64,000 nt of DNA from a virus. Positions 57,474 through 62,115 of this stretch are shown in pieces. The stretch lies in the IMG/VR virus record IMGVR_UViG_3300047325_000150; one strand, given 5' to 3'. The translations under genes were made by a program, and so were the position numbers. Within the stretch, counting starts at the first letter, position 1. Every line of letters begins with the position of its first letter. Under the pieces are notes generated by a model, which was not told where the DNA came from, ran no database searches, and was given only the letters and a program-made list of their open reading frames with translations.

Positions 57474-58190
57474 AATATATGCCCATATATATAGATTTTA
57501 CGATAATATTAATGTTAGAAAATTTTGTAGTAATTATAGCAAAGTTGTGCTGGGAGCTTAAAGATGAATTTTTGGTAATTTCTAGATAGAAATGCATCTG
57601 GTATTTTTATAACAATTATTATTAACGGTGAAAAAGAAAAAGAGTTTACTTTTGAAGACATTCGAACTGCACAAGATGCAGTTCAAAAAAGCTTTCCCAA
57701 TATTGATTATAATTGGGATGCAGACGAAGAAGGTTTAAATTATATACTTGATTTTCTTTATGCAGGTGATGAATACCATGCAGAAGTGCAAGCAACAAAC
57801 GTTGTTGAGTATAAATTAGATCATCGTAAAATCTAAATAGACTGCGGAGGGGTGACGAGTGTTCCTGTAAAGGAATGGGTCACAGTTTTGTATAAGACGT
57901 ATTTTTAACAAAACCTTGCTATTCTGTAGGGTAGAAGTTGGTTAGTTAAAGATTAAAGTAGGATTTGATCCTTCCATCTTATACATTAAAATTAATGGGC
58001 CATTAGTGCTAATAGTAAAACACTGGTTTTGCAATCCGGAGTCAGCGGGGCGGTACCGCTATGGTCCATAAAATTTTAGGTAAATTACGTTCACCAGCAT
58101 TCCAAAGTAAAATTCGAGTTTTTATGGGGCATGGGCAGGATTCAAACAGTGCAACGTCGGTGCAAATCCGTCCTGCGACGCCAATATAAA

Positions 58191-58266
58191 GCCTTGTTAG
58201 CCGAATGGTTAAGGCAACTCACTCGTAATGAGTAGATTGGGAGTTCGATTCTCTCACAAGGCACCA
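58191..58266 (+). tRNA. tRNA-Thr (CGT), CCA encoded
   Basis: G1-C72 and C2-G71 acceptor GCCTTGT/ACAAGGC. Anticodon arm ACTCA-CTCGTAA-TGAGT. T arm GGGAG-TTCGATT-CTCTC. Confidence 0.8.
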
Positions 58267-58277
58267 ATAAAAATTTT

Positions 58278-58358
58278 GCTCGTGTAGGCTATTTGGTATC
58301 GCCGGTGAACTTAAAATTCATGTCGTTTTTGCTGGTTCGACTCCAGTCACGAGCACCA
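58278..58358 (+). tRNA. tRNA with Leu-reading anticodon TAA and a 9-nt unpaired variable region; CCA encoded
   Basis: Acceptor GCTCGTG/CACGAGC, A73. Anticodon arm GTGAA-CTTAAAA-TTCAT. T arm GCTGG-TTCGACT-CCAGT. Confidence 0.55.
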
Positions 58359-58365
58359 CAGTAAT

Positions 58366-58444
58366 GCCCAAGTATGCAAATTGGTAAAGCAGCAATTCTC
58401 AAAAAGTTGTGATTTTGACGGTTCGAGTCCGTCGTTGGGCACCA
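58366..58444 (+). tRNA. tRNA with Leu-reading anticodon CAA, 7-nt variable region; CCA encoded
   Basis: Acceptor GCCCAAG/GTTGGGC (one G-G mismatch at 7:66), A73. Anticodon arm CAATT-CTCAAAA-AGTTG. T arm GACGG-TTCGAGT-CCGTC. Confidence 0.55.
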
Positions 58445-58449
58445 AGTTT

Positions 58450-58565
58450 AAAGGATCTTTACAGCATATAATTTGCCTTCCAAGCCGAGAGTGCGGGTTC
58501 GATTCCCGCTTTCCCTACAATGAGGGGAAATAGTTTAATGGTAGAACACGTAAAAAGTAGATCCT
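58450..58565 (+). other. permuted/split tRNA-like locus 1 (3' half followed by its complementary 5' half)
   Basis: Order: AAAGGATCT, 34 nt, T arm GCGGG-TTCGATT-CCCGC, acceptor-3' TTTCCCT, A, CAA, tga, acceptor-5' GGGGAAA, TA, D arm GTTT-AATGGTA-GAAC, then AGATCCT. Confidence 0.45.
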
Positions 58566-58689
58566 GTTTTTTGATATGGTATAGACGTAACTCAGAGAAA
58601 GAGTTGACGCTCAGAAGCAGTGTCGATGGTTAAAGTCCTTCCATCTATGGACATGTTATGAAAAGAAAAAGTTGAGTTGCTCTCAACAT

Positions 58690-58760
58690 TGGGGAATTCG
58701 TATAATGGTATTACGGTAGCTTTGCAAGCTACTCACAGCGGTCCGATTCCGCTATTCTCC
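58690..58760 (+). tRNA. tRNA-Ala (TGC), no encoded CCA
   Basis: Acceptor GGGGAAT/ATTCTCC with the G3-U70 Ala identity pair. Anticodon arm GTAGC-TTTGCAA-GCTAC. T arm AGCGG-TCCGATT-CCGCT. Confidence 0.8.
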
Positions 58761-58998
58761 CCTAATTTTATAAAATGATCAATTCAGCATTAAACAATGA
58801 TGGATAAATTTTATTGCTCAAACGAAAACGACATTCTTTCCTATATAGTTTTGATTCATGAAATAAATTCAATGAACGACATTGTATATCACATCTATTT
58901 TGATTTCTATATTTTACTAAACCCAGGAAATCCTTGCAAGATTTTAGCTTGATCGGTTTGAGTCCGATATGTTCCATTATCTATTTTGTAGGCTTTGT

Positions 58999-59077
58999 CA
59001 GCCATTGGGGAAGTCTGGTCGTTCCCGCCTGTTTTGGAAACAGGAGATTTACGTTGGTTCAAATCCAACATGGCTGA
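58999..59077 (+). tRNA. tRNA-Pro (TGG), no encoded CCA
   Basis: C1-G72 acceptor CAGCCAT/ATGGCTG. D stem GGGA/TCCC with an 11-nt D loop. Anticodon arm CCTGT-TTTGGAA-ACAGG. T arm GTTGG-TTCAAAT-CCAAC. Confidence 0.7.
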
Positions 59078-59099
59078 CAAAACCTACGAAATAAAGTTT

Positions 59100-59194
59100 A
59101 AGGATCTGTTACAGCAAAAATGAAACTTTATTGGTTCAAATCCAATTTTCTCCGCCATTTATGGGGAAAATGCTCGTGGTAGAGCATAGATCCT
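59100..59194 (+). other. permuted/split tRNA-like locus 2
   Basis: Order: AAGGATCT, 22 nt, T arm ATTGG-TTCAAAT-CCAAT, acceptor-3' TTTCTCC, G, CCA, tttat, acceptor-5' GGGGAAA, AT, D arm GCTC-GTGGTA-GAGC, then AGATCCT. Confidence 0.45.
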
Positions 59195-59197
59195 GTT

Positions 59198-60001: not shown

Positions 60002-60749
60002 AGTGTTAATTATACTTGATGTTAGAGTTCAATTTCAATATCAAATACTAAATTGTTTATATCGCGGTGGTGAAATTGGCCATCATACAAGTCTCCAAAA
60101 CTTGAGTTCCGAGTCGATGCTCGGCCGCGGTGCCAAGTATATTAATTGATGGTGGTACGAGTCATCTAGTGAGGACGAATTCCTGTGAAGAATTGTCGAG
60201 GTGGGGGCAGAACCCACGTATCACCCCAGAATTAAATTATAAGACGAAACTCCATATTGCGGAGATTCATGCCTGTGTGAGGACGATCTTAGGTTGGAAG
60301 ACCTAACGTAGGGTTGGAATCTCTTCCATCTTATAAAACAAGTTTAGGATGATTACAGCAATTACTCAACGTGGTAGAGAAGTGGTTATCTCGCTTGGCA
60401 GTTGACCAAGAGGCGATGGTTCAAATCCATCCTGTGTTACAAATAATATCATCCTGTTTTTAATGGCTTGTAGGTAATATTTTTGCGCTCTTGGTAGTCT
60501 GATGAATACGCACGGCCGATAACCGTGTTTAGGAGAGTTTGATCCTCTCAGGGCGCACCAATTTTTAATTCCCACCGATACTAAAATCGGCGATGTTACA
60601 ACTAATCATGGATGCTGTTGAAATTCAATGGCTAGGTATCGATGTGTAACATAAAACTATAGAGACGTCCTATCTATAGTAGTTCTTGCAGATAATGGAA
60701 TATTCTGCAACAAAAGTTAGCCATGTGTCCTGAAATGAGGACAACTTAT

Positions 60750-60827
60750 GTCGCGGTCTTCTAACTGGAATAGGAAACTTGACTTTCACTCAGGGCAATG
60801 CGAGTTCAACTCTCGTCCGCGACGCCA
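60750..60827 (+). tRNA. tRNA-Glu (TTC), CCA encoded
   Basis: Acceptor GTCGCGG/CCGCGAC. Anticodon arm CTTGA-CTTTCAC-TCAGG. T arm GCGAG-TTCAACT-CTCGT. Confidence 0.75.
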
Positions 60828-60841
60828 ATTTAAGAATTTAA

Positions 60842-60916
60842 TTGGGGATAGTTTAACGGTAAAACCGTGGCCTCTGAAGTCGCTATTCTTGGTTCGAATC
60901 CAGGTCCCCAAACCAT
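60842..60916 (+). tRNA. tRNA-Gln (CTG), CCA encoded
   Basis: U1:A72 acceptor TTGGGGA/TCCCCAA. D stem GTTT/AAAC. Anticodon arm GTGGC-CTCTGAA-GTCGC. T arm CTTGG-TTCGAAT(c)-CCAGG with an 8-nt loop or 1-nt bulge. Confidence 0.7.
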
Positions 60917-61144
60917 CAATTTGACGCAGAAAGGACAAGATAGTTCGTCGCTTGGTTCATACCCAAGAAATCTGGAGGATGCGAGCGCCTCTTCTGCTAC
61001 CAGTTTGCTACAGCGTTAGGACCCGTTGTCGCTAGATTAAGTTTTGACAACGTTTTTGGTTGTAAAGTAGAAACATACTAGTAATGTTTGATGAGGTTCG
61101 CTCTCATCCAATTGACTTTTATTAAAACAAGAATAAAATAAAGT

Positions 61145-61330
61145 ATGAATTGGGAAGATTTACAGGTTGGTGATTATGTATCATTGGAACTGTTATATAC
61201 TAAAACAATATACTATGCCAAAGTAATTAACATGACATCTGTCGATATCAAATTTAAATTTTCATCTACACCTGATTGGGTGAAGCGGAGGATGATGGAA
61301 AACTGTCTAATTGGTATGACAGGAAGGTAA
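61145..61330 (+). CDS. small hypothetical protein, paralog of 61412..61624
   Basis: Shared DL(Q/K)(V/I)GDYVS(L/I)E ... YAKVI pattern. Confidence 0.35.
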   Translation: MNWEDLQVGDYVSLELLYTKTIYYAKVINMTSVDIKFKFSSTPDWVKRRMMENCLIGMTGR

Positions 61331-61411
61331 TGGATTATAATTTTGATTTTCAAAAACATATCAAAACTATCAAATTAGACATAAACGATGATATACAATT
61401 TGAGTTAACTT

Positions 61412-61624
61412 ATGAATAAAATATCTTGGAAAGATTTGAAGATTGGTGATTATGTATCTATAGAAATTTTATCCTATAAAACATACTATGCTAAAGTAAT
61501 TGACATATCATCTAACAATATCAGAGTTAAATTTGCATCTGGTAAGGTAGTGGATTATCACCCGGTGGGGTGGGCGGGCCGCATCAAAGCTACCTTACTA
61601 TGCTACAGTAGTTCAAATACTTGA
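61412..61624 (+). CDS. small hypothetical protein, paralog of 61145..61330
   Basis: As above. Confidence 0.35.
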   Translation: MNKISWKDLKIGDYVSIEILSYKTYYAKVIDISSNNIRVKFASGKVVDYHPVGWAGRIKATLLCYSSSNT

Positions 61625-61762
61625 TTTAAAAATTATTTTTGATTTCTATTTAAATGGTAAACATGTAGGAAACGCAGATTATGCATTTGATGAAGATACT
61701 ACATTCGAAACTACATTATTAGATATGGACGATGTTCAGTTTCGATTAATGATTTCTTAATT

Positions 61763-61837
61763 GCTCCTGTCGTATAGTGGCCATTACCTGGCTTTGGTAT
61801 AGCCAGTACCACAGTTCGATTCTGTGCGGGAGCACCA
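61763..61837 (+). tRNA. tRNA-Thr (GGT), CCA encoded
   Basis: G1-C72 and C2-G71 acceptor GCTCCTG/CGGGAGC. Anticodon arm TGGCT-TTGGTAT-AGCCA. T arm CACAG-TTCGATT-CTGTG. Confidence 0.75.
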
Positions 61838-61949
61838 ATATTATGCCAGTTTGGCTGTCTGAAACTAGACGTGTAATATCACATCTTCCTTTCATACGGG
61901 AAGAGTACCCGGGGAGGTACCGGGGTCTAGTACCAAATTTTTTAAAGTT

Positions 61950-62025
61950 TGCGGGTTAGAGAAGTGGTCATCTCACCAGGTTCATATCCTGGGAATCGGC
62001 GATTCGAATTCGTCACCCGCTACCA
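61950..62025 (+). tRNA. tRNA-Met (CAT); candidate initiator
   Basis: Acceptor with a U1-U72 mismatch. A11:U24 in D stem GAGA/TCTC. Anticodon arm CCAGG-TTCATAT-CCTGG. T arm GGCGA-TTCGAAT-TCGTC. A73 and CCA. Confidence 0.65.
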
Positions 62026-62027
62026 AT

Positions 62028-62115
62028 AAAGGATCTATTCAGCATATAAATACATAAACAGAAATCGTTGGTTCGATTCCAACACAACATGCAAATGTTG
62101 TTGGTGTAGTGGTAG
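62028..62115 (+). other. permuted/split tRNA-like locus 3
   Basis: Order: AAAGGATCT, about 30 nt containing TATAAATA, T arm GTTGG-TTCGATT-CCAAC, acceptor-3' ACAACAT, G, CAA, acceptor-5' ATGTTGT, TG, D arm, then AGATCCT. Confidence 0.45.

Follow-up and report, generated by a model that had tools for sequence, protein, structure and literature searches.

Candidate Y-RNA-like small RNAs with a common paired-end handle in phage tRNA arrays, and their linkage to a protein of predicted Ro60 fold

Y RNAs are encoded beside Ro60, which they tether or gate, as in the RYPER complex with PNPase. The bacterial Y RNA YrlA mimics tRNA, and its tRNA-like domain follows the order V, T arm, closed acceptor-like stem and D arm (PMC4201824; Chen et al. 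2014). In phages, the Ro60 of Thermus phage phiLo binds two upstream Y-RNA-like RNAs (Yrl1 and Yrl2) together with host PNPase (PMC12135203), and the Ro60-like gp130 of Felixounavirus Bas63 counters the Ppl defence system, with its authors offering only as speculation that Y RNAs are among the downstream 'tRNA genes' (doi 10.1101/2024.10.10.617714). Here we describe four modules, M1 to M4, in a 64,000-nt stretch of the IMG/VR virus record IMGVR_UViG_3300047325_000150 (that whole stretch is called the window below). We consider these modules likely to be small noncoding RNA (ncRNA) genes of a phage-borne Y-RNA-like family, whose common handle would be bound by a candidate phage Ro60-like protein.

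Handle modules in the window and across phage tRNA arrays

The strict composite used to define the modules (AGGATnn, 3-4 nt and CAGCA, with the exact complement n'n'ATCCT within 340 nt) occurred four times in the window, always on the + strand, and in none of 300 shuffles. All four modules have the same layout, which runs from AGGATnn through 3-4 nt, CAGCA, 70-90 nt of cargo and n'n'ATCCT to GTT. They lie near the window's 3' end, at 56.7-63.4 kb, in a dense + strand tRNA array where 17 ARAGORN calls are interspersed with small open reading frames (ORFs) as well as with an HNH-like ORF and an IS607-type recombinase; M1 starts 7 nt past tRNA-Leu(caa), which ends at 58444, and M3 starts 4 nt past tRNA-Met, which ends at 62025. 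The 10-mer AGATCCTGTT was found exactly three times in the 64 kb (58559, 59188 and 62129), each time on the + strand and in this region. A relaxed mismatch scan of the window for handles gave output indistinguishable from noise and no credible extra copies, and covariance model R1 found no additional short copies there; this model derives from short copies, fails to span inserts of at least 90 nt and mis-pairs the window copies.

An earlier note on this DNA had placed an upstream motif at 58450, 59100 and 62028 and a downstream arm at 58559, 59188 and 62109, with AGGATCT and AGATCCT pairing over about 90-110 nt. The sequence agrees with the upstream positions and with the first two downstream ones, but the third arm is actually at 62129. 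The pairing itself was recovered as helix P1 in the minimum free energy (MFE) fold and covaries in relatives. For a variant at 60312-60460, the note was right about the compensatory arms (AGGATGA...TCATCCT, 60346-60455) but took the cargo for a T arm plus 3' acceptor only, where the sequence holds a complete tRNA-Asn cloverleaf. Its suggestion of a structural signal at the RNA level stands as well.

Searches beyond the region located the handle, with covarying arms, in many phage tRNA arrays, so that it is not confined to the window. Pattern scans of IMG/VR followed by partner-arm filtering yielded the 94 distinct handle copies listed (before that filter, the matches of a 15-base pattern were mostly due to chance). 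In an unbiased test of P1 covariation, the 5' motif was accompanied by ATCCTG within 300 nt in 116 instances. The dinucleotide ahead of ATCCTG was exactly complementary to nn in 102 of these, for which chance would give 1/16, and 13 dinucleotide types were represented. Overall, P1 covaries at positions 3, 4, 6 and 7, with A1, G2, U5 and the 3' CUG fixed. Additionally, a TTTT leader and an A-rich strand 5' of the 3' arm were kept among 88 copies, as were G at +1 (88/88) and T at +2 and +3 (89%), none of which had been imposed by the search.

The handle consists of a 7-bp P1 formed where the RNA's 5' end pairs with its 3' end (5'-A-G-n-n-U-n-n / n-n-A-n-n-C-U) and followed by an unpaired G-U-U tail, with an asymmetric internal loop after P1 that reads NNN-CAGCA(A) on its 5' side and is A-rich on its 3' side. 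Each RNA joins this constant handle to a variable cargo, which in M1-M3 lacks an anticodon arm and comprises an optional V hairpin, a T arm, a 7-bp loop-closed acceptor-like stem and a D arm, and in M4 is a whole cloverleaf.

The 64 scanned loci contained 857 tRNAs in 612 kb, and the strand of the tRNAs was that of the handle copy in 1607 counts versus 5 (summed over copies). Typically, the upstream tRNA ends 5-6 nt ahead of P1 and the next tRNA starts 9-10 nt past it. These regularities bear on the suggestion in the earlier note of a small insertion element that targets a hairpin. More broadly, the motif pair might mark some small mobile element of DNA (MITE-like, or a cassette bounded by terminal inverted repeats) with hairpins or tRNA arrays as its targets. 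Inverted termini, multiple copies and the homing endonuclease and IS607-type genes in the same array would suit such an element. The arms, however, covary pairwise instead of being conserved as repeats, the spacing in the array is fixed, the orientation tracks that of the tRNAs, and no opposite-strand copy was found in the 80 loci ascertained through the protein gene described below. The cargos are mutually unrelated, and target-site duplications were not noticed, although no systematic search for them was made. The supposed empty site, a hairpin at 57960-57972, lacks the CAGCA box and forms the 3' hairpin within another repeated element (the first structured element in Table 1). We therefore regard a mobile element as highly improbable.

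Promoters and terminators were considered as well, with the upstream box as the promoter and the downstream arm plus a T-run as the terminator. T-rich sequence does follow some downstream arms, and TATAAT-like boxes occur a few bases past ATCCTGTT or ahead of AGGAT in some relatives. Scans with promoter and terminator consensus sequences, however, gave little or no enrichment over shuffles and no predicted site at the arms, which at 30-260 nt apart do not form intrinsic terminators. After P1 comes G-T-T, then variable sequence, with the next tRNA 9-10 nt on. That the motifs are transcription signals is, in our estimate, scarcely credible. Readings of the handle as a retron ncRNA, a K-turn, a CsrA sponge or a riboswitch were dropped for want of a defining feature.

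A scan of 185,579 bacterial and archaeal species genomes gave 80 matches, versus about 34 expected by chance, and only about 8 copies looked genuine, all on contigs of metagenome-assembled genomes (MAGs). Because the matches in these genomes stay near chance level and the few genuine ones are on MAG contigs, the handle family is, on this sequence evidence, phage-borne and not a chromosomal bacterial RNA. When the 7-kb region was compared with cultured phages by Megablast, no match was obtained. The handle RNA family is absent from Rfam, a short handle copy matched no family in Rfam 15, and the literature searched contained neither a description of the family nor anything relevant to the motif strings.

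A linked gene with a predicted Ro60 fold

By ORF clustering, the commonest neighbour of the handle RNAs was a gene for a protein of ~470 aa with DUF2828 and DUF7788/vWA domains, present in 19/57 loci, often with a handle copy directly upstream on the same strand. The association was then approached from the side of the protein: at least 572 IMG/VR stretches encode a relative, of which the 80 best, each a distinct locus, were taken further. A strict handle copy was located within 450 nt upstream of the protein gene in 51/78 loci. With a general definition of the handle (any 7-nt arm, 3-4 nt, CNGCA and an exact complementary arm within 300 nt), an element was found within 460 nt upstream and on the same strand in 72 of the 78 protein loci, compared with 1/78 on the reverse complement and 3/78 inside the gene. 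The arms of gene-proximal copies include AGGTT, AGAAT, AGATT, AGGAT and AGTTT, each with its matching partner, and the last handle copy in the protein-ascertained loci ends 11-26 nt ahead of the ATG. Some gene-proximal copies are minimal 37-nt hairpins without cargo, just ahead of the Shine-Dalgarno sequence, and their appearance suggests an autoregulatory operator. In the leader of the Ro60-like gene of Vibrio phage ValKK3 (locus L394, 2900-3003), UUUUACAGCAAUUAAUU stands just ahead of the Shine-Dalgarno sequence with no obvious 7-bp P1; here conservation may extend to the box but not to the helix.

The DUF2828 protein family comprises 6296 clusters at 50% identity. It is found in 711 cultured phage records, under annotations such as 'RNA-binding protein', 'Ro-like RNA binding protein', 'vWFA protein' and DUF2828, and PHROG 850 ('RNA-binding protein') matches it. 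The cultured carriers include Felixounavirus and phages of Listeria, Staphylococcus, Campylobacter, Vibrio and Mycobacterium. In the cultured genomes examined, the gene and the handle RNAs were both present in 4/4, with varied arrangements. Synechococcus phage BUCT-ZZ01 has three tandem handle copies ahead of the gene, E. coli Felixounavirus AYO145A has four in a tRNA array just past it, Mycobacterium phage LeBron has three just past gp53, and in Stenotrophomonas phage DLP6 the gene and its putative operator are 8-18 kb from five array copies.

The DUF2828+DUF7788 protein is predicted to have a Ro60 fold. An AlphaFold2 model based on 71 diverse homologues from a representative search reached a predicted local distance difference test score (pLDDT) of 92.3 and a predicted template modelling score (pTM) of 0.90; an earlier model from a shallow alignment, with a pLDDT of 50, was not used. 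In a Foldseek comparison with the PDB, the top 7 matches were all full-length Ro60/TROVE structures with a probability of 1.00 each, and isolated vWA domains ranked below them. The matches included the phiLo TROVE domain (9KOP, E = 2.5e-8) and Ro60 dimer (9L5Y), Xenopus Ro60 (2I91, with a template modelling (TM) score of 0.60-0.62, and 1YVR), Ro60/La (9NFA) and the D. radiodurans Rsr (2NVO). The model consists of a helical-repeat ring and a C-terminal vWA domain, and the sequences carry the DxSGS motif of a MIDAS (metal-ion-dependent adhesion site). At the sequence level, the Pfam TROVE model did not match the partner protein, a single weak vWA_Ro60 match was obtained, and searches against PDB chains gave no match.

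In clustered viral loci, recurrent neighbours of the Ro60-like gene are an AAA_33-type kinase, a metallophosphoesterase, a dual-specificity phosphatase-like protein and an RNaseH-like PF04308 protein. A kinase and a metallophosphoesterase are also downstream of the gene in DLP6 (locus L400), and a DUF458 protein is downstream of it in ValKK3 (locus L394). These neighbours may constitute an RNA-end-healing module.

Because of the tight linkage to the Ro60-like gene, we read the handle as the protein-binding element of a Y-RNA-like family and not as a splicing or ligation signal, and the phage Ro60-like protein (Pfam DUF2828 + DUF7788/vWA) would be what binds it. Expression, RNA ends, operator function and biological role can then be pictured as follows. 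The handle RNAs would be co-transcribed with the tRNAs of the array and released upon maturation of the flanking tRNAs, and the minimal hairpins before the ribosome-binding site of the Ro60-like gene would act as its operator. If particles of Ro60 and Y RNA serve as the model, the ring protein would be tethered by the tRNA-like cargo, or gated by it, toward tRNA-recognising enzymes or nucleases, and the likely setting of such a particle would be RNA surveillance or repair, or counter-defence during infection.

Several observations weigh against this interpretation. The window contains no Ro60-like gene detectable by tblastn, and the best profile HMM score over all of its ORFs was 6.9 bits; the gene of this phage would have to lie outside the window. 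Most handle copies are kilobases away from the protein gene, inside tRNA arrays, and these distant copies are linked to the protein only through the handle that they have in common with the gene-proximal ones. M1 and a LeBron copy align with the Rfam YrlA model across its full length (positions 1-114 for M1), but at 30.8 and 39.8 bits their scores are far below the gathering score of 69, and M2 and M3 have no YrlA match. The handle is also unlike the bulged Ro-binding helix of canonical Y RNAs, and M4 could simply be a functional tRNA-Asn.

Distance from the gene is also what a protein-independent account would lead one to expect. The handle might be a maturation or stability clamp, in which cuts by RNase E, P or Z at the neighbouring tRNAs leave an exonuclease-resistant small RNA, and proximity to the Ro60-like gene would reflect shared residence in the array. 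The fixed spacing to the flanking tRNAs and the U-rich flanks are consistent with such a clamp, as is the lack of any window copy near the gene. The invariant CAGCA box, the A-rich strand and the conserved A1, G2, U5 and 3' CUG are left unexplained by it, however, and so is the positioning of a handle hairpin shortly before the ATG of nearly all the protein genes counted above, often in the minimal form without cargo. We judge a clamp of this kind to be unlikely and prefer a handle recognised by the Ro60-like protein.

Cargo of the handle RNAs and other contents of the array

The interiors of the modules, described as tRNA halves in the earlier note, turned out to be continuous tRNA-like domains with a loop-closed acceptor stem. 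In M1-M3, the T arm (GGTTCRAnTCC loop) is followed by the 3' acceptor strand, a short closing loop, the 5' acceptor strand, two bases and a D arm with a GG loop, and P1 occupies the position of the anticodon stem in this body. RNAalifold was applied to 17 YrlA-type copies (M1-M3 and 14 others, including copies from LeBron and AYO145A). Its consensus contains P1, the T and D arms and the closed 7-bp stem, and 18 of the 23 consensus pairs show compensatory changes. M1 and the LeBron copy have an identical 24-nt stretch, CCGAGAGTGCGGGTTCGATTCCCG. In most relatives the acceptor-like stem is capped by a short stable closing loop, e.g., GTAA or CGTAAG, and lacks CCA.

Permuted and split tRNA genes processed at bulge-helix-bulge (BHB) motifs are known from red algae and archaea. 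The earlier note had proposed a BHB-like or ligation helix, and the modules might be circularly permuted or split tRNA genes whose ends are cut and joined at that helix, perhaps by a phage RNA ligase, into functional tRNAs. As in such genes, the flanks pair and the 3' tRNA segments of M1-M3 (3' acceptor strand and T arm) come ahead of the 5' ones (5' acceptor strand and D arm); M2 encodes GCCA past the acceptor 3' strand, and the phage has genes for a CCA-adding enzyme and a Thg1-like protein. P1, however, is an uninterrupted 7-bp stem without 3-nt bulges or any other BHB geometry, and joining the ends would rebuild no anticodon arm and give no anticodon loop in M2 or M3. The acceptor-like stem is closed, the context is that of a bacterial virus, and the same handle also encloses cargos that are not tRNA-like, from simple hairpins (30 nt) to RNAs of 170-260 nt, in addition to whole cloverleaves. 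The topology is moreover that of YrlA, which is not spliced (PMC4201824). Altogether, these observations make permuted tRNA genes very unlikely and agree better with Y-RNA-like modules.

Cargo types across the loci comprise short hairpins, cloverleaves with a 3-bp acceptor stem, YrlA-type bodies and RNAs of 168-260 nt. Many of the short-hairpin cargos are look-alikes of an anticodon stem-loop (14/47, versus 0.3 in shuffles). M4 holds a complete cloverleaf of normal order, with three G-U pairs in its acceptor stem and ACAA in place of NCCA, and analogous cloverleaf-cargo copies occur elsewhere (e.g., loci L153, L130 and L159). Large-cargo copies (168-265 nt) were found at L141 99-357, L155 5764-5995, L163 9638-9876, L202 6090-6282, L146 1760-1927 and L232 (DLP6) 9232-9497. 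They have sequence blocks in common, e.g., ..ACTGGGGATrGGGnCAAGCAGAAAATAAA.., and none reached an Rfam gathering score. Where the fetched locus contains the Ro60-like gene (L141, L155, L163 and L146), the large-cargo copy is directly upstream of it, unlike that of DLP6, which is within the tRNA array. A GOLLD RNA (226 bits) was found at L155 3542-4006, in the same phage tRNA array as handle RNAs. The coordinates of the window features are listed in Table 1.

Table 1. Positions of the handle modules, their parts and other features in the window
Feature	Position	Strand	Detail or basis
M1, whole copy	58452..58568	+	
M1 P1 5' arm	58452-58458	+	AGGATCT; P1 in MFE fold
M1 box	58459-58467	+	TTACAGCAT
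M1 anticodon-arm-like hairpin	58472-58488	+	loop CTTCCAA; read from sequence and consensus alignment
M1 T arm	58493-58509	+	MFE fold
M1 acceptor-like stem	58510-58516 / 58524-58530	+	closing loop 58517-58523; MFE fold
M1 D arm	58533-58547	+	read from sequence and consensus alignment
M1 A-rich strand	58552-58558	+	
M1 P1 3' arm	58559-58565	+	AGATCCT; tail GTT 58566-58568; P1 in MFE fold
M2, whole copy	59101..59197	+	tail GTT
M2 P1 arms	59101-59107 and 59188-59194	+	
M2 box	59108-59117	+	GTTACAGCAA
M2 T arm	59130-59146	+	
M2 acceptor-like stem	59147-59153 / 59163-59169	+	closing loop GCCATTTAT
M2 D arm	59172-59185	+	
M3, whole copy	62030..62138	+	tail GTT
M3 P1 arms	62030-62036 and 62129-62135	+	
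M3 box	62037-62045	+	ATTCAGCAT
M3 T arm	62067-62083	+	
M3 acceptor-like stem	62084-62090 / 62095-62101	+	closing loop GCAA
M3 D arm	62104-62118	+	
M4, whole copy	60346..60458	+	covarying arms; tail GTT
M4 P1 arms	60346-60352 / 60449-60455	+	AGGATGA / TCATCCT
M4 box	60353-60361	+	TTACAGCAA
M4 cargo, tRNA-Asn(GTT)	60368-60440	+	ARAGORN; Rfam tRNA 54.5 bits
First structured element	57838-57985	+	
Second structured element	60140-60337	+	
Degenerate tRNA-like genes	57997-58068 and 58581-58649	+	Rfam tRNA 30.5 and 25.2 bits; no ARAGORN call
Truncated tRNA-like fragment	58925-58975	+	
HNH-like ORF	59198-60001	-	no Pfam match
IS607-type serine recombinase	62210-62800	+	
Truncated N-terminus, TnpB-like by eye	62811-62975	+	runs toward tRNA at 63195
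AspRS, CCA-adding enzyme, sigma-70-type factor, SpoU/TrmH-like, QueD-like and Thg1-like ORFs (jointly listed)	31972-33786, 36455-37090, 48242-48712, 49678-50853, 53647-54507, 28459-29928		

The two structured elements of Table 1 are related to each other, ~150-200 nt long, with common sequence blocks and the closing helix TATAAGA/TCTTATA. Both the 'empty hairpin' and the CTTCCATCTTATA repeat lie within these elements, which lack the CAGCA box, are not members of the handle family and have no Rfam match; the second directly precedes M4. The repeat CTTCCATCTTATA, which the earlier note had listed as a third short motif, belongs to this other kind of element and to a degenerate tRNA, and not to the handle. 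It occurs exactly at 57971 and 60323 and partially at 58638, and a mismatch-tolerant scan showed no enrichment. In the truncated fragment, an anticodon-arm-like hairpin with the loop CTTGCAA is accompanied by a T arm and a 3' acceptor strand, but there is no 5' acceptor strand, D arm or handle. Two further tRNA-like genes are weak or degenerate.

The HNH-like ORF, the serine recombinase and the truncated TnpB-like sequence are selfish-element genes within the tRNA array. Pfam matches also identify AspRS, a CCA-adding enzyme and a sigma-70-type factor of full length among the products of the phage, and other ORFs were read by eye as a SpoU/TrmH-like methylase, QueD-like and Thg1-like. Its toolkit for tRNA maturation and tRNA repair is unusually rich.

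Ro60-like DUF2828 proteins are very common in phages, and the handle RNAs are concrete candidates for their partners, with the handle as a simple signature of sequence and structure by which further candidate partner RNAs can be found. The handle placed in front of the gene is a probable operator, and the handle displays interchangeable pieces of tRNA, namely an anticodon arm, a whole cloverleaf or an anticodon-less body. The role of a phage Ro60 particle thereby becomes directly testable, and many unannotated gaps in phage tRNA arrays, along with some 'pseudo-tRNA' or odd tRNA calls, would be explained.

Relation to described RNAs

Species 1 and 2 of phage T4 (rnaC and rnaD) are small stable RNAs within the T4 tRNA cluster. 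The handle RNAs resemble them in being small RNAs embedded in a phage tRNA cluster; the rnaC and rnaD sequences do not contain the handle motif.

A likeness of another kind is found in the Class I RNAs of Dictyostelium (RF01414). In these, a short stem joins the ends, CCUUACAGCAA (11 nt) comes directly after the 5' strand with C6, C9, A10 and A11 nearly invariant, the remainder is variable, and the C of a conserved 3' CUGU pairs with a conserved 5' G (PMC7919456). They are transcribed from eukaryotic nuclear genes with a DUSE promoter, measure 42-65 nt, are bound by the RRM protein Rnp1A and have been reported as unique to Dictyostelia (PMC7919456). As with the phage handle, a short terminal stem is combined with (CC)UUACAGCAA directly 3' of the 5' stem strand, a variable rest and 3' CUGU, and the near-invariant C6, C9, A10 and A11 match invariant phage positions. 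M1, M2 and M4 have the stem, CUGU and 9/11 of the motif bases, and what is absent from the motif is its first two C's. M2 matched the Rfam Dicty_Class_I_RNA model through the stem, UUACAGCAA and CUG at 20.6 bits, below the gathering score of 41.5, and the model matched neither the other window copies nor a short phage copy. The handle RNAs differ in residing in a phage tRNA array and not in a dictyostelid genome. We think it quite unlikely, though worth stating, that the phage handle is the same module as that of the Class I RNAs, in which case the two groups would be related, or would have converged as ligands, around a single kind of RNA-binding partner, with a Ro60-like DUF2828 protein as one candidate. 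If true, the 'dictyostelid-specific' class of developmental ncRNAs would have a counterpart, perhaps an origin, in phage Y-RNA-like RNAs acquired via bacterial prey.

The closest relations are to phiLo and YrlA. In phiLo, too, a phage protein of Ro60 fold is accompanied by Y-RNA-like genes immediately upstream, and the phiLo structures were the best structural matches to the model obtained here. The features that defined Yrl1 and Yrl2 were different ones, namely a CGAA motif and a layout of stem-bulge-stem type, a comparison made by description and not by sequence, and neither a link to tRNA arrays nor the CAGCAA handle was reported there (PMC12135203).

With YrlA (RF02553), the handle RNAs have in common the paired ends, the order of the tRNA-like domain in M1-M3 and the occurrence of several RNAs per locus. 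Adjacency to a gene for a predicted ring-shaped protein with TROVE and vWA parts holds for the family, in the protein loci and cultured genomes counted above, but no such gene is inside this window. They differ in that the phage handle is a 7-bp P1 with a CAGCAA/A-rich loop, whereas YrlA has a long stem with the canonical Ro-binding site, and the phage copies score 31-40 bits against the YrlA model, short of its gathering score. The phage cargo is interchangeable (an anticodon-arm-like hairpin only, a whole cloverleaf or a large RNA), the copies are scattered in tRNA arrays, and the partner protein is a DUF2828 family member that carries no TROVE annotation. Altogether, the handle RNAs are a new and well-supported variant, present in many phages, of the theme formed by Y RNA and Ro60.

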